From Escherichia coli (GTDB lineage Bacteria; Pseudomonadota; Gammaproteobacteria; Enterobacterales; Enterobacteriaceae), in the NCBI RefSeq assembly GCF_048403405.1, contig NZ_CP183129.1: a stretch of 64,000 nucleotides of DNA; one strand, given 5' to 3'. Shown here one piece after another: positions 1 through 13,218 of the stretch. Positions within the stretch are counted from its first letter, which is position 1. Each line of letters starts with the position of its first letter. The position numbers were made by a program, and so were the translations under genes. The notes under the pieces were generated by a model. It saw only the letters and a program-made list of their open reading frames with translations. It made no database searches and was not told the DNA's origin.

Positions 1-634
1 CAGCGATTTTGCCAGTAACCCGGAACCACGTTGCCCCTGCATTTTGCTGCTGGATGTTTCTGGTTCTATGAACGGTAGACCTATTAATGAACTTAACGCC
101 GGATTGGTTACCTTTCGCGATGAGCTGCTTGCCGATTCGCTGGCCTTAAAAAGAGTGGAACTCGGCATTGTGACGTTCGGCCCGGTGCATGTGGAACAAC
201 CCTTTACCAGCGCCGCTAATTTTTTCCCGCCCATCCTGTTTGCCCAGGGCGATACACCAATGGGCGCTGCCATTACCAAAGCCCTGGATATGGTAGAGGA
301 GCGGAAACGTGAGTATCGTGCAAATGGTATTTCGTATTATCGCCCGTGGATTTTCCTGATCACCGATGGCGCTCCAACCGATGAGTGGCAGGCTGCCGCC
401 AACAAAGTGTTTCAGGGGGAAGAAGATAAGAAGTTTGCCTTCTTTTCCATCGGTGTTCAGGGGGCGGATATGAAGACTTTGGCACAAATCAGCGTTCGTC
501 AGCCTTTGCCACTGCAGGGATTACAATTCCGTGAACTGTTTAGCTGGTTATCCAGTTCGCTGCGTTCGGTTTCCCGCTCCACGCCGGGAACGGAAGTTGT
601 GCTGGAAGCGCCAAAAGGCTGGACGTCAGTGTGA
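1..634 (+). CDS. yegL: VWA (von Willebrand factor A / TerY-like) domain protein YegL, 5' end cut by window edge
   Basis: The frame is open from nt 2 ([23 protein letters not shown]...). It has a MIDAS-type DxSxS motif (DVSGSM) and ITDGAPTD. The TGA stop at 632-634 overlaps the GTG start of the next gene (GTGA). Matches E. coli YegL as recalled. Confidence 0.9.
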
Positions 635-1392
635 GCTGGCGTCTGGTCTATGCATCAACCGTTGGAACGTCGCACATCAGCGCGGACTTGCCTTGCCAGG
701 ATGCCTGCCAGATGCAGGTTGCCTGGTTAAATGACCAGCAGCCATTATTGTCGGTATTTGTCGCCGATGGCGCAGGTAGCGTCTCGCAGGGTGGCGAAGG
801 TGCGGAGCTTGCCGTTAATGAAGCGATGGCTTATATGATGCAAAAATTGCAGGGCGGGGAATTGGGGCTTAATGATGTCCTCGCAACGGATATTGTGCTG
901 ACCGTTCGTCAGCGACTTTTTGCCGAGGCGGAAGCCAAAGAATTAGCTGTTCGCGATTTTGCCTGCACGTTTATGGGATTGATTTCATCAGCTAATGGCA
1001 CCCTGATTATGCAGATTGGCGATGGCGGCGTGGTGGTAGATTTGGGGCACGGTCTGCAACTGCCGCTCACGCCGATGGTAGGTGAATATGCCAATATGAC
1101 ACACTTCATTACTGATGAAGATGCCGTTTCCAGACTGGAAACTTTCACCAGCACTGAGCGTGCGCATAAAGTTGCAGCATTTACGGATGGTATCCAGCGG
1201 CTGGCGTTAAATATGCTGGATAATTCTCCCCATGTGCCTTTCTTTACCCCGTTTTTCAATGGGCTGGCGTCAGCAACGCAGGAACAACTCGATTTATTAC
1301 CTGAATTGTTAAAGCAGTTTTTGTCCAGCCCGGCGGTAAACGAGCGTACGGATGATGATAAAACGTTGGCACTGGCGCTGTGGTTACCATGA
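631..1392 (+). CDS. yegK: PP2C-like Ser/Thr protein phosphatase YegK (PphC)
   Basis: 253 aa. PP2C_2-like acidic/Gly motifs ([19 protein letters not shown]). GTG start overlaps the yegL stop, and its TGA stop overlaps the yegI ATG (ATGA at 1389-1392). Confidence 0.9.
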
Positions 1393-3329
1393 AACCCACT
1401 TTATATACTGCTACTGGTGAGTGCGTTACGCCAGGCTGTGAACTGGGCAAAGGTGGCGAAGGCGCGGTTTATGATATCGAGGAGTTTGTCGATAGCGTCG
1501 CCAAGATTTATCACACGCCGCCACCCGCCTTAAAACAGGACAAACTTGCCTTTATGGCTGCGACAGCTGACGCACAGTTGCTGAATTATGTCGCCTGGCC
1601 GCAGGCAACGCTTCACGGTGGACGAGGCGGAAAAGTTATCGGTTTTATGATGCCAAAAGTTTCTGGTAAAGAACCGATTCATATGATCTATAGCCCGGCA
1701 CATCGTCGCCAGAGTTACCCTCATTGTGCGTGGGATTTTCTACTCTATGTTGCGCGTAATATTGCTTCATCTTTTGCTACGGTTCACGAGCACGGGCATG
1801 TCGTGGGTGACGTAAACCAGAACAGCTTTATGGTAGGCCGTGACAGCAAAGTGGTGTTGATTGATAGCGACTCCTTTCAGATTAACGCCAACGGCACACT
1901 GCATTTATGCGAAGTCGGCGTGTCGCATTTTACGCCGCCAGAGCTGCAAACCTTGCCATCATTTGTCGGCTTTGAACGCACCGCGAATCACGATAATTTT
2001 GGCCTTGCGTTGCTGATTTTTCACGTCTTGTTTGGTGGTCGGCATCCTTATTCCGGTGTACCGCTTATCTCTGATGCGGGTAATGCGCTGGAGACGGATA
2101 TTGCCCATTTCCGTTATGCCTACGCGTCAGATAATCAGCGACGTGGTTTAAAACCGCCGCCACGATCTATTCCGCTGTCGATGTTACCGGGCGATGTTGA
2201 AGCCATGTTTCAGCAGGCATTCACGGAAAGTGGCGTGGCAACCGCGCGTCCGACGGCAAAAGCGTGGGTAGCGGCACTTGATTTACTACGCCAACAGTTA
2301 AAGAAATGTACCGTTTCGGCAATGCATGTTTACCCCGGTCATTTGACTGACTGCCCGTGGTGTGCGCTGGATAATCAAGGCGTTATCTATTTTATTGATC
2401 TCGGCGAAGAGGTCATTACCACCGGCGGTGATTTTGTGCTGGCGAAAGTCTGGGCAATGGTGATGGCGTCAGTAGCACCACCAGCATTGCAACTGCCATT
2501 ACCCGATCATTTCCAACCGACTGGCAGGCCGCTTCCTTTAGGCCTGTTACGGCGTGAATACATCATTCTGATTGAGATCGCACTGTCAGCGTTATCGCTG
2601 CTGCTTTGCGGCCTTCAGGTAGAACCGCGTTATATCATTTTGGTTCCCGTGCTGGCGGCTATCTGGATTATTGGCAGCCTGACAAGCAAAGCGTACAAAG
2701 CAGAAATCCAGCAACGTCGTGAGGCGTTTAATCGCGCGAAAATGGACTATGACCATTTAGTAAGCCAGATCCAACGGCTGGGCGGGCTGGAAGGTTTTAT
2801 CGCCAAACGGGCGATGATCGAAAAAATGAAGGACGAAATTCTCGGGTTACCGGAAGAGGAGAAACGCGCTCTGGCAGCACTTCATGACACTGCAAGGGAA
2901 CGGCAGAAGCAGAAGTTTCTGGAGGGATTTTTTATTGATGTTGCCTCTATTCCCGGCGTTGGCCCTGCGCGTAAAGCGGCGTTACGGTCTTTTGGTATTG
3001 AAACAGCCGCAGATGTTACCCGTCGTGGCGTTAAGCAAGTGAAAGGGTTTGGCGACCATCTGACCCAGGCGGTTATCGACTGGAAAGCGAGTTGTGAACG
3101 CCGTTTTGTGTTCAGGCCGAACGAAGCGGTAACGCCTGCAGACAGACAAGCGGTACTGACTAAAATGGCCGCCAAACGACATCGGCTGGAATCGACGTTG
3201 ACTGTCGGCGCGACAGAGTTGCAGCGATTCCGCCTTCAAGCTCCAGCACGGACCATGCCGTTGATGGAACCGTTACGTCAGGCGGCAGAAAAACTGGCTC
3301 AGGCGCAGGCTGAATTAAGCCGTTGCTGA
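1389..3329 (+). CDS. yegI: Eukaryote-like Ser/Thr protein kinase YegI with TM hairpin, coiled coil and C-terminal tandem HhH motifs
   Basis: Kinase motifs: G-loop GKGGEG, VAKIY lysine, catalytic loop VVGDVNQNSF, DSD (DFG-equivalent) and TPPE. Then CPWC, two hydrophobic helices (IILIEIALSALSLLLCGL, IILVPVLAAIWIIGSL), and IPGVGPARKAALRSFGI plus VKGFGDHLTQAVIDW. The start is taken at ATG 1389 (ATGA coupling). An in-frame GTG at 1380 is an alternative. Confidence 0.9.
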   Translation: MKPTLYTATGECVTPGCELGKGGEGAVYDIEEFVDSVAKIYHTPPPALKQDKLAFMAATADAQLLNYVAWPQATLHGGRGGKVIGFMMPKVSGKEPIHMIYSPAHRRQSYPHCAWDFLLYVARNIASSFATVHEHGHVVGDVNQNSFMVGRDSKVVLIDSDSFQINANGTLHLCEVGVSHFTPPELQTLPSFVGFERTANHDNFGLALLIFHVLFGGRHPYSGVPLISDAGNALETDIAHFRYAYASDNQRRGLKPPPRSIPLSMLPGDVEAMFQQAFTESGVATARPTAKAWVAALDLLRQQLKKCTVSAMHVYPGHLTDCPWCALDNQGVIYFIDLGEEVITTGGDFVLAKVWAMVMASVAPPALQLPLPDHFQPTGRPLPLGLLRREYIILIEIALSALSLLLCGLQVEPRYIILVPVLAAIWIIGSLTSKAYKAEIQQRREAFNRAKMDYDHLVSQIQRLGGLEGFIAKRAMIEKMKDEILGLPEEEKRALAALHDTARERQKQKFLEGFFIDVASIPGVGPARKAALRSFGIETAADVTRRGVKQVKGFGDHLTQAVIDWKASCERRFVFRPNEAVTPADRQAVLTKMAAKRHRLESTLTVGATELQRFRLQAPARTMPLMEPLRQAAEKLAQAQAELSRC

Positions 3330-3341
3330 GCCAGTTTTCAA

Positions 3342-4694
3342 TTAACGAAACACCACTTCCGCCCAGCGTGCCAGCCCGGCGGTGACGGAGCCAAAGTCAT
3401 CGCCGCCTGCAATCGGAATGCCCGGCAACTGTTCTGCCAGCGCCTTTTTAATCAGCGGTGAACGGGCGCTACCGCCGGTCAGGTAGATAACGTCCGGTTT
3501 TTCCTGGGCGTTATCCAGGGCCAGTTGCACCTGTTCCAGAATCCGCGCCAGTGGCTGGCTGAGGGCGCTTTCCAGCCCTTGCTGGCTAATCAGCGTAGCC
3601 AGTTCATCGCTGATAAACGGCAGTGAGGCGCGGGTTTCCGCTACGCTTGAAAGCGCAATTTTGCTCTCTTCTGCGCTACGTACCAGGCGATAGCTTAAAC
3701 GCTGACGCCAGACTTTCTGTAACAGGGCCACTTTTTCCGGTTCGCGGGCATCGCGTACCAGATCGTTAAGCAGACGACCGTTGGCACTACTGTAGAAATC
3801 ACTTTGCGCAGGGACGTCGTTGATGGCAACCGCATTCCACCACGGCAGAATCGGCAGGGCGATGCCTTTTTCGGTTTCGCCCCCCATGCCCAGTAACGGC
3901 ATCAGGTTTTTAAACGCCAGTGCGATATCCAGATCGTTACCGCCAATACGGCAACCACTGTGACCCAGCAGGCTGGCTTCACGATCGAGACGCGAACGCC
4001 ACTGCGGCCCCATCAGCAGCAATGAACAGTCAGTCGTACCACCGCCGATATCCACCACCAGCACCCGTTTTTCTTCCTGCAAGGTGGCTTCGTAATCCAG
4101 CCCAGCCGCGACCGGCTCGTACTGGAATACCACATCCTTAAACCCGGCACGCTTCGCCGCGCGTTCCAGAATCCCCTGCGCCTGGGTGTTTGCTTCATCG
4201 CCGCCAAGCCCCTGGAAGTTGATAGGGCGACCAATTACCGCCTGAGTAATCGCATCCGGCAGCTGTGCCTGCGCCTGCTGGCGAATGTGCAACATCATTG
4301 CGCAGACCAGATCCTCAAACAGCGCTACCTGCTGCGGTTTTAAGCCGCTGGCACCGAGGAACGATTTTGGTGATTTCACAAACCACACTTCTTCTGGATC
4401 ATCAATGTACTGTGCCAGTGAGGAAAGACCGAACTGCACGCTTTTCGCCGTAACATCGATATCTTCTTCGCGGTTATAACGAATCGCCCGACGCAACAGC
4501 GCCTGCGTTTCATCGTCGTCTGCCGGAACATCATGATGGCGGTACAGCCATTCGCTTACCGCTTCACGCGTTGGCGCGCAAAGCATTGAAGGCAGCAGCG
4601 TGCTGTCGTTTTCCATTTTCAGTAATTGCGGCTTACCGTCGCGCATGACCGCCACTGAACAGTTTGCTGTACCGTAATCAAAACCAATAAACAC
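3342..4694 (-). CDS. yegD: Hsp70/actin-fold ATPase (DnaK-like nucleotide-binding domain only) YegD
   Basis: N-terminal FIGFDYGTANCSVA phosphate-1 motif, VVDIGGGTTD phosphate-2 motif and YLTGGSARSP adenosine motif. Choosing the internal GTG start gives 450 aa, matching K-12 YegD. The ORF-track N-terminal extension was trimmed. Confidence 0.88.
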   Translation of the reverse strand: MFIGFDYGTANCSVAVMRDGKPQLLKMENDSTLLPSMLCAPTREAVSEWLYRHHDVPADDDETQALLRRAIRYNREEDIDVTAKSVQFGLSSLAQYIDDPEEVWFVKSPKSFLGASGLKPQQVALFEDLVCAMMLHIRQQAQAQLPDAITQAVIGRPINFQGLGGDEANTQAQGILERAAKRAGFKDVVFQYEPVAAGLDYEATLQEEKRVLVVDIGGGTTDCSLLLMGPQWRSRLDREASLLGHSGCRIGGNDLDIALAFKNLMPLLGMGGETEKGIALPILPWWNAVAINDVPAQSDFYSSANGRLLNDLVRDAREPEKVALLQKVWRQRLSYRLVRSAEESKIALSSVAETRASLPFISDELATLISQQGLESALSQPLARILEQVQLALDNAQEKPDVIYLTGGSARSPLIKKALAEQLPGIPIAGGDDFGSVTAGLARWAEVVFR

Positions 4695-4767
4695 GAAATA
4701 ATCCCCATGCCGGTGAAGAAGGGGCGTGACTTTAGCGAAATGTTGCCGTCGCGACAACCGGAATATG

Positions 4768-4780
4768 AAAGCAAAGCGTA
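4768..4780 (+). promoter_or_regulatory. Candidate Ada-box in alkA promoter (AAAGCAAAGCGTA)
   Basis: Lies about 50 nt upstream of the alkA ATG. Resembles the AAAGCGCA-type Ada binding sequence described for alkA. Recalled from memory, not verified. Confidence 0.35.
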
Positions 4781-4827
4781 GCGTCTGAATAACGTTTATG
4801 CTGAAAGCGGATTAACAAGGAGATGCG

Positions 4828-5685
4828 ATGTATACCCTGAACTGGCAGCCGCCGTATGACTGGTCGTGGATGTTGGGATTTCTCGCCGCCCGTGCGGTGA
4901 ACGGTGTGGAAACGGTCGCTGACGATTATTATGCCCGTAGTCTGGCGGTGGGCGAATATCGCGGCGTGGTGACTGCTATTCCGGATATAGCCCGCCATAC
5001 TCTGCACATAAATTTAAGTGCAGGTTTAGAACCTGTTGCCGCAGAGTGTCTGGCGAAAATGAGCCGCCTGTTTGATCTGCAATGTAACCCGCAGATTGTT
5101 AACGGTGCGTTGGGCAAGTTAGGCGCGGCGCGGCCCGGATTGCGTTTACCCGGCAGTGTTGATGCTTTTGAGCAGGGCGTGCGGGCGATTTTAGGCCAAC
5201 TGGTGAGCGTGGCGATGGCGGCAAAATTGACCGCCAGAGTGGCACAGCTTTATGGCGAACGGCTGGATGATTTTCCGGATTATGTCTGCTTCCCCACGCC
5301 TCAGCGGCTGGCAGCAGCCGACCCGCAGGCATTAAAAGCGTTAGGTATGCCGTTGAAACGGGCAGAGGCGCTGATTAATCTGGCAAATGCGGCGCTGGAG
5401 GGCACCTTACCAATGACAATTCCGGGCGACGTAGAGCAAGCGATGAAAACGCTGCAAACTTTTCCGGGTATCGGGCGCTGGACGGCGAATTATTTCGCCT
5501 TACGTGGCTGGCAGGCGAAAGATGTTTTCCTGCCGGATGATTATCTGATTAAACAGCGATTTCCGGGAATGACACCGGCACAAATCCGCCGTTATGCCGA
5601 ACGCTGGAAGCCCTGGCGTTCTTATGCGCTGTTGCATATCTGGTATACGGAAGGCTGGCAACCAGACGGAACGGACGAATTGTAG
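4828..5685 (+). CDS. alkA: 3-methyladenine DNA glycosylase II
   Basis: 285 aa. MYTLNWQPPYDWSWMLGFLAARAV... matches AlkA. Contains the HhH-GPD motif region (FPGIGRWTANYFALRG). Confidence 0.95.
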   Translation: MYTLNWQPPYDWSWMLGFLAARAVNGVETVADDYYARSLAVGEYRGVVTAIPDIARHTLHINLSAGLEPVAAECLAKMSRLFDLQCNPQIVNGALGKLGAARPGLRLPGSVDAFEQGVRAILGQLVSVAMAAKLTARVAQLYGERLDDFPDYVCFPTPQRLAAADPQALKALGMPLKRAEALINLANAALEGTLPMTIPGDVEQAMKTLQTFPGIGRWTANYFALRGWQAKDVFLPDDYLIKQRFPGMTPAQIRRYAERWKPWRSYALLHIWYTEGWQPDGTDEL

Positions 5686-5722: not shown

Positions 5723-8700
5723 TCAGTTAATCGCGAAATAACTGCTATTCACCAGCAAATCCAGCGGTTGGGCATCGGCAATCACATCGCCATAAATCAG
5801 ATCGACGCCGATGCCAGAAAGCGTATCCATCACCAGGGGTAAAACTACTGGCCCGGCGATGGTCTTCATCCCGAGCCGCTGAGCGTGCCCCTGAATGATC
5901 GTAATCAGCATCTCATCCATCAAATTTCCCTGCACGTTGGCGCATAACTCACCATCAAGTAGCAGGTAATCTGCCATATTCGCTTTCAGCGAGTTGAAGA
6001 TTTGCAGATCGCGGCCCACCTGACTGAATACGATCCGACATCCCGCCAGCCGCAGTTTTTGCACGTTTTCTGCGTGATCTAAAATCGCGTCTGCCGGAAT
6101 AATCAGATGTAATAACCGTGGTGGTAGAGGGCTATTTTCCAGCTGCTCAATTAGTTCATTCACCAGCGTGGCGCTACTCAAACCGGCAACGGAAAGCGGG
6201 AGGGCGATGCTTATACCTTTACTGGCAACCGCTTTGGCGGCCTGCTGGAAAAAATCGTGGAATACCCGTCGGTCAAGAGCATGGCTAAGTGCCGGATCGC
6301 TGAAGCTACGACGAAATGTTTGTTCATCAATAATCTCGCCTTCGCAACTCCAGAGCTTAAGTGAAATCAGCCACAAATTACGCGCTTGCGGGATCCGCGG
6401 CGAAGCGACACCGTGGGCGATCATCATCAACTGATTCTCTTTAATCATCCGCCACTGTTCATCAAGCGACATCACCGCCCGTTCGCTATTTGTGGCAGCT
6501 TGCTGCGGTTCGTAAACCGTCACCCGGCCCCGTCCACCATTTTTGGAGGCATAACAGGCGATATCGGCCTGCGACATCACTTCAGCCGCCTGATGATTGT
6601 TGTCATCAATCAAGGTAATCCCGGCACTGGCACCTACCCGATGTACTCGTCCTTCCCAGATAAAGTGATAGTCATTCACGGCGCTGATAATGCGTGTAGC
6701 GATAAAACGCGCACTTTCGACATTACAATCTGGCAGCAGCAGACCAAATTCATCGCCACCGAGTCGCGCCAGCACGTCGCTGGAGCGCAGCATACTCAGC
6801 ATCAATGACGCCAGTTCGCGCAGTAAAGCGTCGCCAGCGGCGTGCCCGGCGCTGTCATTCACCGCTTTAAAGCGATCAAGATCGATAAACACCAGTGCAT
6901 GTCGCTGATGTGTACTGTTTACCGTTTGCAGCAGGATGCGTAGTTGCTTCTCAAAACTGGCGCGATTGGCGAGATGCGTCAGTGCATCATGGGAGGCGCT
7001 GTAGCTCAGCTGGCGCAGCATTTTGCGCGATTCGGTGACGTCCTGAATCACCAGAACCGAACCAATATTGCTGCCGTCCAGAGTACTTAACGGCGTAATA
7101 CTGTAATGCACGTCGTAGCTGCCGCCGCTTCGGCAGTGCAACACCACATCTTGTTCAATCGCGGAACGTGAGGTGTCGGCACTGTAAATGTTCTCCATTA
7201 ATGGTCCGTTGTCGCCAAAAGTAATATGCAACACCGTCAGGAGCGGAACACCTAACGCTTCTTCCTGCGTCCAGCCGCTCATCTTCTCCGCCACCGGATT
7301 CATAAAGGTAATTTTCATCGCCATATCAATACAGACCACGGCTTCACCGATGGAATCAAGCGTAATGTGCAGGCGCTCTTTTTCCTGAAACAATGCCTCG
7401 TTAAGCTGTTTAACCTCGGTCATATCCATATTAATGCCGAGCAGACGTTCGACTTCGCCTTCTTTATTCAGTACCCGGTTGGCGAGGGCGCGGATATGGC
7501 GGATGCCATCTTTCACGGCAATGCGAAATTCCAGCTTAAAGGGCGAGCGTGATTGCAATGAATCGCGAATCACTTTTTCGGCGTGCTGGCGATCTTCCGG
7601 CAGCACGCACTCGTACCACACCTGCCAGTTCGGTTTGATATGCGGAGGAATTTCATACAGCTCGAACATCCGCTTATCCCAGCTAAAAATATTCGGCTTT
7701 AGCTCCCACTCCCAGATGCCAATCCCGCCCGCTTCGTTAGCCAGCGTGATGCGCTCCATCAGTTGCTGATTCACCTGTTCGGTGCGTTTTAGCTCGTTAA
7801 TGTCTTCAATCTGAGCGATAAAATAGAGCGGCGTACCATCGGTGTGGCGCACCAGTGAGACGGCAAGCAACGCCCAGACAACATCGCCATTGCGGTTGTA
7901 GTAGCGTTTTTCCATTGAATAGGTGTTTATTTCACCGCTGATCAGCTTTTCAACCTGTTGCAGATCTTTATTGAGATCCTCCGGCCAGGTCAGTTGCTGA
8001 AAGGTGAGTCCGCGCAGCTCTTCCTGACTGTAACCGAGAAACTGGCAGAGTGCTTTGTTGGATTGCAGCCATTGCCCCTCGGTGCCCACTAATGCCATGC
8101 CGATGGCGGAATATTCCATGGCGTTACGAAAACGGGTTTCGCTTTCGGAAATGTGTTTGCGTTCCGCACGAAAGGCATACATCACCATGGTCATGATGTT
8201 GGCGGGCAGCAGGATCAGCAAAAACGGTAGCCACGGCATATGGCTCATCAGGTATGTACGCGGCGTAGCAAGCAGGGAGGGATCCGCGGCCATCATCAGT
8301 GACACCATCATCACCGTGGTAAGGAAGATCAAAAAGGCTTCCATTCGTGGCAGGCGCACGGCGCTCCACATCAACAGCACAATAATGAAAGTAAAAGGCC
8401 ACGGCAGATACAGCATCGAAAGCCAGCTTAACGTCAGTGTGATGGCTAACGTGAGCAGCGACTCAAAAAGCAACCGTGGGTTGCGATGGCGCAGCAGATA
8501 GTGTGGTTTAAATAACAATCCCAGCGGCACCAGTGCCAGTGCGCCGATGGATTCTGACAGTACCCATATCAAAAATGCCCTGAGAGGATCGTCTCCGGGC
8601 GTCAGCAGGATAACCAGAACACCCCCTAACAGAGGTGGAACAATGGCGCTGCCGAGTGCCAGACGCAGCCAGTCAGCCAGATTTTGCAATGGGTTATACC

Positions 8701-9040
8701 ACGGCAGCAATTTACGCAGTAGCACTGCCCCGACCACGGCTTCAACAATATTGATGGTCGTCCAGGTCATGTTCAGCGAGCTGGTGGAAAAAAGCAGGAT
8801 GGATGCGGCGATATTTCCCAGCGAGCAGCTCAGCGCAATCCCCGGCCACATGCGCCCGGCATGGCGATAAAACGCCACCATCATGATGGACGTCGGGAAC
8901 CACAGTGGGGCGAGTTGGGTGCCAAACTGCGAAAGCTCAAGCGAGAAAAGGGTAAAGATAAACGAGACTAAACCTAAACTGACCAGGTGAAGCAGCGGGT
9001 GGGGCAGGGCAATTAATACATGCTGTGATTGTTTGCTCAT
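5723..9040 (-). CDS. dgcE: Diguanylate cyclase DgcE (MASE1 - PAS x3 - GGDEF - degenerate EAL)
   Basis: 1105 aa with a polytopic N-terminal membrane domain and PAS-like repeats. The GGDEF motif is RLGGDEFGLLL, with RSSD five residues upstream (I-site). No EAL signature was found in the C-terminal domain. Length equals K-12 YegE/DgcE. Confidence 0.93.
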   Translation of the reverse strand: MSKQSQHVLIALPHPLLHLVSLGLVSFIFTLFSLELSQFGTQLAPLWFPTSIMMVAFYRHAGRMWPGIALSCSLGNIAASILLFSTSSLNMTWTTINIVEAVVGAVLLRKLLPWYNPLQNLADWLRLALGSAIVPPLLGGVLVILLTPGDDPLRAFLIWVLSESIGALALVPLGLLFKPHYLLRHRNPRLLFESLLTLAITLTLSWLSMLYLPWPFTFIIVLLMWSAVRLPRMEAFLIFLTTVMMVSLMMAADPSLLATPRTYLMSHMPWLPFLLILLPANIMTMVMYAFRAERKHISESETRFRNAMEYSAIGMALVGTEGQWLQSNKALCQFLGYSQEELRGLTFQQLTWPEDLNKDLQQVEKLISGEINTYSMEKRYYNRNGDVVWALLAVSLVRHTDGTPLYFIAQIEDINELKRTEQVNQQLMERITLANEAGGIGIWEWELKPNIFSWDKRMFELYEIPPHIKPNWQVWYECVLPEDRQHAEKVIRDSLQSRSPFKLEFRIAVKDGIRHIRALANRVLNKEGEVERLLGINMDMTEVKQLNEALFQEKERLHITLDSIGEAVVCIDMAMKITFMNPVAEKMSGWTQEEALGVPLLTVLHITFGDNGPLMENIYSADTSRSAIEQDVVLHCRSGGSYDVHYSITPLSTLDGSNIGSVLVIQDVTESRKMLRQLSYSASHDALTHLANRASFEKQLRILLQTVNSTHQRHALVFIDLDRFKAVNDSAGHAAGDALLRELASLMLSMLRSSDVLARLGGDEFGLLLPDCNVESARFIATRIISAVNDYHFIWEGRVHRVGASAGITLIDDNNHQAAEVMSQADIACYASKNGGRGRVTVYEPQQAATNSERAVMSLDEQWRMIKENQLMMIAHGVASPRIPQARNLWLISLKLWSCEGEIIDEQTFRRSFSDPALSHALDRRVFHDFFQQAAKAVASKGISIALPLSVAGLSSATLVNELIEQLENSPLPPRLLHLIIPADAILDHAENVQKLRLAGCRIVFSQVGRDLQIFNSLKANMADYLLLDGELCANVQGNLMDEMLITIIQGHAQRLGMKTIAGPVVLPLVMDTLSGIGVDLIYGDVIADAQPLDLLVNSSYFAIN

Positions 9041-10693: not shown

Positions 10694-12547
10694 ATGAGAC
10701 GATTTCTGACGACGCTGATGATACTCCTGGTCGTGCTGGTGGCCGGGTTATCTGCGTTAGTGTTGCTGGTGAATCCGAATGATTTCCGCGACTATATGGT
10801 CAAGCAAGTTGCTGCACGTAGCGGTTATCAATTGCAGCTCGACGGGCCACTGCGTTGGCACGTCTGGCCGCAGCTTAGTATCCTCTCCGGGCGAATGTCT
10901 CTCACCGCCCAGGGCGCGAGCCAGCCACTGGTTCGCGCCGACAACATGCGTCTGGACGTGGCGCTTTTACCACTACTGAGTCATCAACTGAGCGTTAAGC
11001 AGGTGATGCTAAAAGGGGCAGTGATCCAACTGACGCCGCAGACGGAAGCGGTGCGCAGTGAAGACGCTCCGGTTGCACCGCGCGACAATACCTTGCCGGA
11101 TCTGTCAGACGATCGCGGATGGTCGTTTGATATATCCAGTCTTAAGATGGCGGACAGCGTGCTGGTGTTCCAGCATGAAGATGACGAGCAGGTGACAATC
11201 CGCAATATCCGCCTGCAAATGGAACAAGATCCCCAACATCGTGGCTCATTTGAGTTCTCCGGGCGGGTTAATCGCGATCAGCGCGACCTCACGATATCCC
11301 TTAACGGTACGGTAGATGCTTCTGATTATCCGCATGATTTAACGGCGGCTATTGAACAAATTAACTGGCAGTTGCAGGGTGCAGATTTACCAAAACAAGG
11401 TATTCAGGGGCAGGGGAGTTTCCAGGCCCAGTGGCAGGAGTCACATAAACGCCTTTCATTTAACCAAATTAGTTTGACCGCCAATGACAGTACGCTGAGC
11501 GGGCAAGCACAGGTCACGCTGACAGAGAAACCGGAATGGCAGCTGAGACTGCAATTCCCGCAACTGAATCTTGACAACCTCATCCCGCTTAAAGAAACAG
11601 CGAACGGTGAAAACGGTGCCGCGCAGCAAGGGCAGAGCCAATCCACGTTGCCGCGCCCGGTCATTTCTTCGCGTATTGATGAACCGGCCTATCAGGGATT
11701 GCAAGGCTTTACGGCTGATATTTTGTTGCAGGCCAGTAACGTGCGCTGGCGCGGAATGAATTTTACAGATGTTTCCACGCAAATGACCAACAAGTCGGGT
11801 TTGCTGGAAATTACTCAACTGCAGGGCAAGCTTAACGGTGGACAGGTTTCGCTGCCGGGCACGCTGGACGCGACATCAATAAATCCGCGGATAAACTTCC
11901 AGCCACGGCTGGAAAACGTTGAGATTGGCACCATTCTGAAGGCGTTTAACTATCCGATTTCGTTGACTGGAAAGATGTCACTGGCTGGTGATTTCTCCGG
12001 TGCTGACATAGATGCCGACGCATTCCGCCACAACTGGCAAGGACAGGCACATGTCGAAATGACCGACACACGCATGGAAGGGATGAACTTCCAGCAGATG
12101 ATTCAGCAAGCGGTAGAACGTAATGGTGGTGATGTGAAGGCCGCTGAAAACTTCGATAACGTAACGCGTCTTGACCGCTTTACCACCGATTTGACGTTGA
12201 AGGATGGCGTCGTGACGTTAAACGACATGCAAGGTCAATCGCCAGTGCTGGCGCTGACAGGGGAAGGCATGTTGAATCTGGCAGATCAAACCTGCGACAC
12301 CCAGTTTGACATTCGTGTGATTGGTGGCTGGAACGGAGAAAGCAAACTGATTGATTTCCTCAAAGAAACGCCAGTACCGCTGCGGGTTTATGGCAACTGG
12401 CAGCAACTCAATTACAGCCTGCAAGTGGATCAGTTACTGCGCAAACATCTACAGGACGAAGCGAAACGTCGCCTGAATGACTGGGCCGAGCGGAATAAAG
12501 ATTCCCGCAATGGCAAAGATGTGAAGAAGTTGCTGGAGAAGATGTAA
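10694..12547 (+). CDS. asmA: AsmA (outer-membrane assembly / lipid-transport AsmA-family protein)
   Basis: 617 aa with an N-terminal TM anchor (LTTLMILLVVLVAGLSALVLLV). Sequence and position downstream of dcd match K-12. Confidence 0.94.
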   Translation: MRRFLTTLMILLVVLVAGLSALVLLVNPNDFRDYMVKQVAARSGYQLQLDGPLRWHVWPQLSILSGRMSLTAQGASQPLVRADNMRLDVALLPLLSHQLSVKQVMLKGAVIQLTPQTEAVRSEDAPVAPRDNTLPDLSDDRGWSFDISSLKMADSVLVFQHEDDEQVTIRNIRLQMEQDPQHRGSFEFSGRVNRDQRDLTISLNGTVDASDYPHDLTAAIEQINWQLQGADLPKQGIQGQGSFQAQWQESHKRLSFNQISLTANDSTLSGQAQVTLTEKPEWQLRLQFPQLNLDNLIPLKETANGENGAAQQGQSQSTLPRPVISSRIDEPAYQGLQGFTADILLQASNVRWRGMNFTDVSTQMTNKSGLLEITQLQGKLNGGQVSLPGTLDATSINPRINFQPRLENVEIGTILKAFNYPISLTGKMSLAGDFSGADIDADAFRHNWQGQAHVEMTDTRMEGMNFQQMIQQAVERNGGDVKAAENFDNVTRLDRFTTDLTLKDGVVTLNDMQGQSPVLALTGEGMLNLADQTCDTQFDIRVIGGWNGESKLIDFLKETPVPLRVYGNWQQLNYSLQVDQLLRKHLQDEAKRRLNDWAERNKDSRNGKDVKKLLEKM

Positions 12548-12558
12548 GACAAGTTATG

Positions 12559-12595
12559 CAGATGGCGGCGTCAATTTGTCGCCATCTGTATTTAT
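12559..12595 (+). terminator. Rho-independent terminator after asmA
   Basis: cagatggcg / cgccatctg is a 9-bp stem with a 12-nt loop, followed by tattta. It sits 5 nt from the stop of the convergent antitoxin gene and may act in both directions. Confidence 0.6.
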
Positions 12596-12599
12596 AGCA

Positions 12600-12890
12600 C
12601 TAAGCAGCATGTGGATATTGAATTTCAATACGTTGAATATGCAATCCTGCATGAGCCATCATGGTGATCAATTTATCGATACTAAAGATCTGGATCTTAC
12701 CTCTGGCAAGTTCAGATATGCGAGGTTGAGTGACCCCTAAAGCAGACGCTGCCTGGGCCTGGCTAAACCCTTGTTGTTCAATCCAGTTATTAATGATCGT
12801 TACAAGTTCGGCACGGATCCGCATATTTTCCGCTTGTTCAGGGGTGTCACTCACCGCATCCCACACACTATCAAAGGTTTCAATTTTCAT
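12600..12890 (-). CDS. XRE-family HTH antitoxin (HigA-like)
   Basis: MKIETFDSVWDAV...QAQAASALGVTQPRISELARGKIQIFSIDKLITM is a typical HTH_XRE antitoxin. The ATG at 12890 overlaps the toxin stop by 11 nt (ATGAAAATTGA). The ORF-track start at 12908 is less likely. Confidence 0.8.
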   Translation of the reverse strand: MKIETFDSVWDAVSDTPEQAENMRIRAELVTIINNWIEQQGFSQAQAASALGVTQPRISELARGKIQIFSIDKLITMMAHAGLHIQRIEIQYPHAA

Positions 12891-13218
12891 TTTTCCGCTC
12901 CTGAACAAGTTCTTTATAGCGTCGTTTGGCTAAATCAACATCCGATTGACTGGTAGTCTGTGTTTTCTTTTGAAAACAATGCAATACGTAAACCGCTTCT
13001 TCAAATTTTGCGATATACATGACGCGATAGATCCCATCAGCATCGCGAGTACGAATCTCTCGCACACCAGGGCCGATAGTTGAAAAAGGTTTCCAGTCGT
13101 ATGGGTTTAACCCTTGTTGGATCCTGTCGAGTTGATAGCCAATTTCCTGTCGAGACGATTCTGGAAATGCGCGTAAATCGTCAAGACTGGTATCAAGAAA
13201 AGCCAGCTTTTTTCTCAT
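12880..13218 (-). CDS. RelE/HigB-type (Gp49-like) type II toxin
   Basis: 112 aa. GIYRVMYIAKFEEAVYVLHCFQKKTQTTSQSDVDLAKRRYKEL is characteristic of the Gp49/HigB-like RelE superfamily. The toxin lies upstream of the antitoxin, which is the HigBA order. Confidence 0.8.
   Translation of the reverse strand: MRKKLAFLDTSLDDLRAFPESSRQEIGYQLDRIQQGLNPYDWKPFSTIGPGVREIRTRDADGIYRVMYIAKFEEAVYVLHCFQKKTQTTSQSDVDLAKRRYKELVQERKNEN

Follow-up and report, generated by a model that had tools for sequence, protein, structure and literature searches.

A predicted helix-hairpin-helix module in the membrane-tethered tail of the Escherichia coli Ser/Thr kinase YegI, and its three-gene setting

What is the C-terminal half of YegI, the orphan Ser/Thr kinase of Escherichia coli, for? 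The gene lies near the start of a 64,000-nucleotide stretch of E. coli contig NZ_CP183129.1 (assembly GCF_048403405.1), referred to below as the window, and is the last gene of an operon in which it follows yegL (a vWA protein) and pphC (a PP2C phosphatase). An earlier sequence-only reading had described, downstream of the kinase domain, a CPWC motif, two hydrophobic helices, a charged heptad-like stretch and two helix-hairpin-helix (HhH) motifs, and had proposed a DNA-binding tail on the cytoplasmic face of the inner membrane. We consider the architecture itself very probably right: a kinase domain followed by a CHCC zinc module, then, after a linker, a two-helix membrane hairpin, a basic stalk, an (HhH)2 domain and a final pair of helices, with both ends of the protein in the cytoplasm. 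As to function, we lean, by a small degree, towards a self-contained phospho-switch made up of YegL, PphC and YegI, a membrane-anchored version of the TerY-P type, in which the tail would bind nucleic acid.

The two HhH motifs are IPGVGPARKAALRSFGI (amino acids 521-537, nucleotides 2949-2999) and VKGFGDHLTQAVIDW (amino acids 551-565, nucleotides 3039-3083). They lie exactly where the sequence-only reading had placed them (nucleotides 2949-3083) and are conserved in an alignment of 70 diverse non-Escherichia genomes, from which all residue counts given here are taken. Both G-h-G hairpins are present, as G523-V-G525 and G553-F-G555, with G525 retained in 65 of the 70 genomes and G553 and F554 in 69 each. 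A dibasic motif follows the first hairpin, R528 being basic in 69 and K529 in 68 genomes. Seven residues from L532 onward (L532, S534, G536, T539, A540, A541 and D542) are shared by all 70 genomes, as are W565 and F573. No part of the protein is better conserved than the block containing the first motif, whose mean column identity is 0.77 versus 0.65 for the kinase domain.

An AlphaFold2 (AF2) model built on an 85-sequence alignment predicts the tail (amino acids 440-646) as a series of helical hairpins with a predicted local distance difference test score (pLDDT) of 93-98, in which the HhH region spans residues 521-571. The predicted domain packs five helices compactly and can be superposed on solved HhH2 domains, as the sequence-only reading had anticipated. 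In structure comparison the best scores were with AF1548 (7.9), the N-terminal domain of yeast Rad51 (7.5, at 21% identity), NusA-AR2 (6.5) and Dbh/Dpo4 (6.2), followed by SAM domains (about 6), the C-terminal domain of the RNA polymerase alpha subunit (alpha-CTD; 6.0), REV1 (6.0), DisA (5.8), the C-terminal half of UvrC (5.7), Hef HhH (5.6) and LigA (5.5). The weak Foldseek matches to the tail were also nearly all HhH domains (alpha-CTD, Rad51/RadA/Dmc1, Hjm, Dpo4, DisA, ComEA and BAF). In combination, these model-based comparisons support an (HhH)2/SAM-like fold for the tail. The fold alone cannot tell DNA binders from protein binders, and it is not proof of DNA binding, because NusA-AR2, alpha-CTD and SAM domains use the same fold to bind proteins.

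On which side of the membrane does this domain lie? The two strongly hydrophobic helices and the short loop between them were recovered both by hydropathy and in the AF2 model, at amino acids 391-409 (nucleotides 2559-2615, Kyte-Doolittle 19-mer peak 2.31) and 415-431 (nucleotides 2631-2681, peak 2.07). In the model, the first transmembrane (TM) helix covers residues 389-408, and the second starts at residue 415 and runs on as one helix to residue 465. Across relatives the hairpin keeps its hydrophobicity (mean Kyte-Doolittle values of 1.8 and 1.6 for the two helices), not its sequence (mean column identities of 0.29 and 0.28). Rajagopalan and Dworkin report two TM helices predicted with Phobius, and PhoA-LacZalpha fusions that were cytoplasmic at residues 340, 390, 439 and 646 and PhoA-positive, that is, periplasmic or in the membrane, at residues 414 and 432. 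Some relatives carry one further TM helix after the tail, which is typically followed by periplasmic domains: TonB_C, bacterial SH3 and LprI (with good E-values), PG_binding_2 (weak) and TPR repeats. This arrangement indicates that the tail itself is cytoplasmic. Hydropathy, the published fusions and the domain logic of the relatives agree on a two-pass inner-membrane protein with both termini inside, so that the hairpin does return the chain to the kinase side, as had been proposed. This keeps the (HhH)2 domain within a few nanometres of the inner membrane, on its cytoplasmic face, where the kinase also lies.

The segments that flank the (HhH)2 domain are charged and helical. Two charged stretches lie in the stalk between the membrane and the domain (KAYKAE...QRL, amino acids 434-464, and EEEKRAL...KQKF, amino acids 489-510), and a coiled coil had been suspected there. 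When tested against 2000 shuffles, a heptad a/d pattern was in excess at amino acids 434-465 (p ~0.007) and in the last helix, amino acids 607-645 (p ~0.018). The suspicion holds for these two stretches and fails for helices 467-485, 487-512 and 583-605, which show no heptad excess; a coiled coil along the whole stalk is thereby rejected. Stalk residues E439, R443, R505 and Q506 are conserved, as are L611, Q638 and D/E642 in the C-terminal helices; the phosphorylated serines S602 and S644 are not. The net charge of the tail across relatives averages +9.5 and ranges from +3 to +16.

Ahead of the membrane hairpin, directly after the kinase domain, the CPWC motif occupies amino acids 322-325 (nucleotides 2352-2363, one base from the first estimate of 2351-2362). 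It had been taken for a knuckle on its own. The motif is real, but it supplies only two of four ligands: it is the second half of an invariant C307/H313/C322/C325 predicted zinc site with the pattern C-x5-H-x8-C-P-W-C (C-x5-H-x8-C-x2-C). All four putative ligands and W324 are found in 70 of 70 genomes. AF2 predicts a beta-hairpin (strands 304-306 and 314-316) and, after it, a helix at 323-329 that starts at CPWC. We rejected H318 as a fifth ligand, as it is conserved in merely 40 of the 70 genomes. In the linker that leads to the membrane, W355 is shared by 69 genomes and P381-L-P383 is conserved; the model has a helix at 351-360 with a pLDDT of 86-96.

The kinase domain is of the Hanks type, with its catalytic Lys and Asp residues retained and its activity published; K39, D141, N143, D159, D161 and S162 are invariant. 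Pfam Pkinase matches just 11 of 34 relatives, with E-values down to 1.6e-5, indicating that the kinase domain of this family is divergent. AF2 models the N-lobe poorly because most metagenomic relatives are truncated there, and a Foldseek search of the Protein Data Bank (PDB) with the full-length model gave only weak kinase matches, owing to the shallow alignment over the N-lobe, and was uninformative on the tail. Rajagopalan and Dworkin describe an active kinase with a DSD loop and autophosphorylation with second-order kinetics; the published phosphosites are S153, S160, S162, S602 and S644. PphC is a published enzyme that dephosphorylates YegI.

Is this pairing of a kinase with a DNA-binding-type tail an odd combination, as the sequence-only reading had thought? 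It is not. The C-terminal half gave 152 matches in a protein database, and with the tail alone as query a profile-free scan of 1.84 billion cluster representatives gave 2030 matches at E ≤ 1e-3, 1239 of them at E ≤ 1e-10. When one genome per species was scanned, relatives turned up in 241 species, and 80 of these loci were retrieved. The full-length architecture (query residues ~1-644) occurs in beta-, gamma- and deltaproteobacteria, Acidobacteria, Nitrospira, Verrucomicrobia, Planctomycetes, Chlorobi, Paenibacillus and the archaeon Methanoregula. COG4248 is defined by this very union of kinase and HhH, which is kept from Proteobacteria to Paenibacillus and Methanoregula, and relatives are already labelled in databases as [quoted passage not shown]

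Homologs of yegL and pphC lie directly upstream of the kinase gene in nearly all of the 80 loci, and the exceptions are short or fragmented contigs. Outside Escherichia, the identity to the E. coli proteins (loci L007-L080) is 60-85% for YegL, 35-62% for the kinase and 31-65% for the PP2C phosphatase, which suggests that YegL is the most constrained component of the triad and perhaps its effector or ligand-binding part. The yegL homologs, about 1.4 kb upstream of the kinase gene, have a complete DxSxS metal-ion-dependent adhesion site (MIDAS) motif. We found no conserved fourth gene when clustering flanking open reading frames (ORFs), inspecting the immediate downstream gene and searching 126 flanking ORFs with Pfam and PADLOC. 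The genes yegD and alkA adjoin yegI in Escherichia and Shigella only. Defence or mobile genes flank the triad sporadically (an AAA_15 + UvrD pair, Fic, an NmeDI-type endonuclease, an integrase and JetA; MADS genes, Mrr, PIN and a caspase-like peptidase); this list was drawn up without a control set, and we claim no enrichment. One triad is on a plasmid (L073, Methylomicrobium lacus plasmid unnamed2, 58 kb), and another (L082) is beside an integrated element, with integrase, DnaB and IstB-like genes downstream. These copies are consistent with horizontal spread of the triad as a cassette.

Variants of the protein bear on how the tail is built. TPR repeats follow a third TM helix in P0150 (confirmed by Pfam) and, by eye, in P0173 and P0213, and bacterial SH3 domains do so in P0183 and P0146. 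The TPR-extended P0150 is still within a vWA-PP2C-kinase triad. After such a helix, P0261, which is without a TM hairpin between zinc site and stalk, has LprI and EGF-like repeats, and P0172 has a weak PG_binding_2 match below the Pfam cut-off. Through these TPR, SH3 and LprI/EGF-like extensions the protein may receive a second signal, from the cell envelope. P0247 has the stalk, (HhH)2 domain and helices without any kinase; a TM helix follows this module, and then a periplasmic TonB_C domain. The tail occurs with varied partners and without the kinase, and therefore the stalk, (HhH)2 domain and helical hairpin are, by domain architecture, a separable cytoplasmic module beside the membrane. 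P0211 and the protein at 2807-5467 of locus L084 are also among the longer relatives with extra TM helices. P0187 is, like P0247, kinase-less; this kinase-less group (P0247 and P0187; locus L083, 209-2395) has a cysteine-rich, zinc-ribbon-like N-terminus and no TM hairpin before the module. The C-terminal end of P0187 is hydrophobic, and the short contig of P0247 does not reach any neighboring genes.

The closest known system is the TerY-P triad (Anantharaman et al., 2012, as cited in PMC11090510), in which a TerY-like vWA protein and a PP2C phosphatase accompany a Ser/Thr kinase that ends in a zinc ribbon. A related TerY-P-like version, in which the kinase has an OB fold, is a stand-alone anti-phage system (Gao et al., 2020), and it has been suggested for such TerY-P-like kinases that the OB fold, and possibly also the zinc ribbon, binds nucleic acid. 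YegI loci share with TerY-P the order of three adjacent genes and the domain set, a zinc module after the kinase (C307/H313/C322/C325 has the form of a zinc ribbon, judged from sequence and model), and mobile-cassette behavior with variable and sometimes defence-rich neighbors. With the OB-fold system they share a predicted nucleic-acid-binding domain at the C-terminus of the kinase. They differ in that YegI adds a TM hairpin and carries (HhH)2 where the OB fold would be; in Escherichia the YegI operon is a core chromosomal locus. The operon is a TerY-P-like, membrane-anchored variant, because COG4248 proteins sit beside vWA and PP2C genes in nearly all 80 loci. We do not call it a member of the PADLOC family, given that the TerY and STK_OB models match marginally and YegI itself is matched by none of the PADLOC TerY-P models.

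Known (HhH)2 DNA binders offer a second comparison. In the N-terminal domain of Rad51/RadA, the C-terminus of UvrC, Hef/XPF, LigA, DisA and ComEA the domain has other settings, whereas in YegI it is embedded between long helices, tethered to the membrane as part of a kinase, and matched by sequence only below family thresholds. DisA, the DNA integrity scanning protein, also joins an enzymatic domain to a C-terminal HhH domain through a helical spine. However, DisA is a soluble octameric diadenylate cyclase rather than a membrane kinase, and its homology to YegI is confined to the HhH domain.

What, then, might the tail do? In the reading we slightly favor, the two G-x-G hairpins and the dibasic motif would let the tail grip the backbone of duplex nucleic acid, whatever its sequence. 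Several tails on one DNA molecule, assisted by the heptad helices, would raise the local kinase concentration, and this in turn would drive trans-autophosphorylation of S162 in the activation loop, a reaction of second order. PphC would return the switch to its starting state, and YegL, which is the best conserved of the three and has a MIDAS motif, would be a metal-dependent adaptor or output. Clustering on a DNA template is the simplest model because autophosphorylation is second order. Several observations make DNA binding plausible: both G-x-G hairpins are kept and a near-invariant dibasic pair occupies the site at which HhH domains contact phosphates, the tail has a net positive charge, and in related triads the kinase bears an OB fold at this position. 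A further observation comes from a genome-wide overproduction screen, in which YegI and YegL were both among 208 E. coli proteins (~5% of the genome) that raise DNA damage/SOS. The chance that two of the three operon genes would fall in such a set is on the order of 1%, thus unlikely, and this shared effect adds to the plausibility of DNA binding. On balance we judge backbone binding by the tail slightly better supported than its absence; that DNA would also activate the kinase is a tentative idea, on the doubtful side.

A number of points weigh against nucleic-acid binding or against the TerY-P likeness. The similarity searches expected to reveal HhH2 domains match HhH proteins at poor significance: no Foldseek match to the tail has E < 0.1, a profile search of the PDB reaches HhH proteins only at E-values of 0.05 to 1, and the sole Pfam match on YegI is HHH_5 at amino acids 515-550 (E 1.1e-3, 19.9 bits versus a gathering cut-off of 27), a family that falls below threshold in 28 of 34 relatives. 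Protein-binding HhH cousins score as well as DNA binders in the structure comparison. Taken by itself, the (HhH)2 domain has a modest positive charge (about +3), and the residue after the second hairpin is usually acidic. The connector SFGIETAAD, with its two acidic residues, shows no variation, which is beyond what non-specific DNA binding requires and suggests a protein interface. The DNA damage seen upon overproduction could be an indirect effect of membrane-protein stress. In PADLOC, YegL matched TerY at E 0.009-0.013 and one archaeal kinase matched STK_OB at E 1.2e-3, both marginal. Moreover, the yegL-pphC-yegI operon is barely expressed in laboratory conditions with no phenotype reported, and the tail goes undiscussed in the available text of the published YegI papers found.

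The strongest alternative follows from the connector and the protein-binding cousins. The (HhH)2 domain may be a protein-binding module with no role for DNA, as in NusA-AR2, the RNA polymerase alpha-CTD, SAM domains and the ERCC1-XPF HhH2 pair, and might recruit YegL, PphC or a substrate, or dimerize the kinase. We regard this as a possible but clearly less probable account. The G-x-G hairpins and the dibasic motif, which are usually lost in protein-binding relatives of HhH domains, are kept in YegI; the tail is consistently basic, the kinases of related triads bear an OB fold in its place, and overproduction of either YegI or YegL raises DNA damage.

A more ambitious version of nucleic-acid binding is that YegL, PphC and YegI constitute a membrane-anchored DNA-sensing phospho-switch. 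Several tails would bind injected DNA of a phage or plasmid, or the nucleoid once damage or a change in transertion has occurred; binding would cluster the kinases, leading to trans-autophosphorylation and a YegL-dependent response, either defence or a growth arrest linked to DNA damage. Relatives with periplasmic TPR, SH3 or TonB_C domains would add an envelope signal. Sensing of DNA at the membrane, also proposed by the sequence-only reading, is a plausible and reasonable hypothesis rather than a finding, and in this complete form we think it unlikely.

Less probable again is that the tail is a structural scaffold, with basic amphipathic helices that lie on the anionic inner leaflet or bundle and thereby set the oligomeric state of the kinase, and with the HhH domain as a ligandless relic of the fold. 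The net positive charge, the heptad/amphipathic periodicity of the first and last helices and the helical hairpins of the AF2 model would fit such a role, as would the published result that removing the tail sites S602 and S644 lowers autophosphorylation only modestly. Yet the first HhH motif is more conserved than the kinase, with many residues invariant from archaea to E. coli, which is unexpected for a relic, and the module is reused in the kinase-less P0247. Finally, an extracytoplasmic C-terminal half whose HhH domain meets only periplasmic or incoming DNA, like ComEA (a membrane-anchored periplasmic HhH2 protein among the weak Foldseek matches), can be set aside almost entirely, as it is already refuted by the published cytoplasmic fusions at 439 and 646, and basic residues flank the two hydrophobic helices on the cytoplasmic side and the third TM helix of relatives separates the tail from periplasmic TonB_C, SH3 or LprI.

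Much of this picture re-derives published topology and long-standing database annotation. The YegI protein, its kinase activity, its two-pass topology and the "kinase + HhH" label were already known, and the published record covers activity, the DSD loop, autophosphorylation and topology, with the HhH label standing in databases. The available text of the YegI preprint makes no mention of HhH motifs and does not say what the C-terminal domain does; neither the zinc site nor the wider family figures in its abstract, two Results sections and Discussion. New here are the definition of the CHCC zinc site, the predicted-structure support for (HhH)2, the modular nature of the tail, the variant architectures including a kinase-less relative, the strict linkage of the triad across bacteria and archaea, and the link to the DNA-damage screen. 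YegI, PphC and YegL occur in nearly all E. coli, and nothing else in the system hints at a ligand as the tail does. Should the (HhH)2 domain bind DNA and control the kinase, the orphan Ser/Thr kinase of E. coli would have an input, and the DNA-damage effect of YegI and YegL overproduction would tie in. The TerY-P conflict and stress modules would then gain a membrane-tethered branch that reads double-stranded DNA, across bacteria and archaea.

Table 1. Coordinates in the window of the yegL-pphC-yegI genes and of the segments of YegI (aa, amino acids).
Feature	Position (nt)	Strand	Remarks
yegL, 3' part (start off window)	1..634	+	vWA/TerY-like, DxSxS MIDAS motif; first gene of the triad
pphC (yegK), PP2C-type phosphatase	631..1392	+	Pfam PP2C_2, E 1.6e-50
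yegI coding sequence	1389..3329	+	ATG at 1389, stop 3327-3329; 646 aa + stop
Hanks-type Ser/Thr kinase domain, aa 1-300	1389..2288	+	atypical VGDxxQxS and DSD motifs
Zinc-binding module, aa 303-330	2295..2378	+	C307, H313, C322, C325 as predicted ligands
Cytoplasmic linker, aa 331-388	2379..2552	+	conserved helix ~aa 351-360 (W355), proline-rich P-L-P motifs
Transmembrane hairpin	2553..2687	+	TM1 aa 389-409, periplasmic turn aa 410-414, TM2 aa 415-433
Helical stalk adjoining membrane, aa 434-512	2688..2924	+	AF2 helices 415-465, 467-485, 487-512, pLDDT 96-98
(HhH)2 domain, aa 513-582	2925..3134	+	G523-V-G525, R528-K529, connector SFGIETAADV, G553-F-G555, DW..CERRFVF end
C-terminal helices, aa 583-646	3135..3326	+	AF2 helices 583-605, 607-645; carries phosphosites S602, S644

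The identity of the genes is clear. The first 5 kb of the window share 100% DNA identity with E. coli chromosomes annotated yegL, pphC, yegI, yegD and alkA, and the length of YegI (Table 1) is that published (646 aa). Nearly every complete E. coli genome has the region (5423 of 5426), which makes it a core chromosomal locus in Escherichia. The partial YegL in the window, annotated as yegL in the matching chromosomes, matches Pfam VWA at E 2e-9; a full-length copy in locus L006 has 219 aa and matches VWA at E 8e-10. The genes overlap by 4 nt at both junctions, yegL/pphC at 631-634 (GTGA) and pphC/yegI at 1389-1392 (ATGA), which indicates that the three are tightly coupled. The oppositely oriented, K-12-specific yegJ, which lies between pphC and yegI, is absent here, as in the arrangement of B strains and pathogens.

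Several minor observations concern the tail and its surroundings. The motif DW..CERRFVFNP..AV (YegI aa 564-580, window 3078-3128) bears a striking resemblance to the cell-wall-binding-type CROP repeats of clostridial toxins, and TcsH and TcdA were the top PDB-profile matches on DW..ERRFVFNP. We rejected this match as a repeat-summing artefact because no single stretch is significant and AF2 predicts helix there. The stop codons of yegI (ending at 3329) and of the convergent yegD (3342) are 12 nt apart (3330-3341), leaving no space for an intergenic terminator. The product of yegD is Hsp70/actin-like, and one Oxalobacteraceae relative is mislabelled "molecular chaperone"; in locus L082, a DnaJ-TPR gene (11845-12999) lies downstream. 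Further along the window, the minus strand of 5723-9040 encodes a 1105-aa membrane protein in which PAS, GGDEF and EAL-type motifs were spotted by eye; from its sequence it is probably the diguanylate cyclase yegE/dgcE, with no bearing on the tail of YegI.

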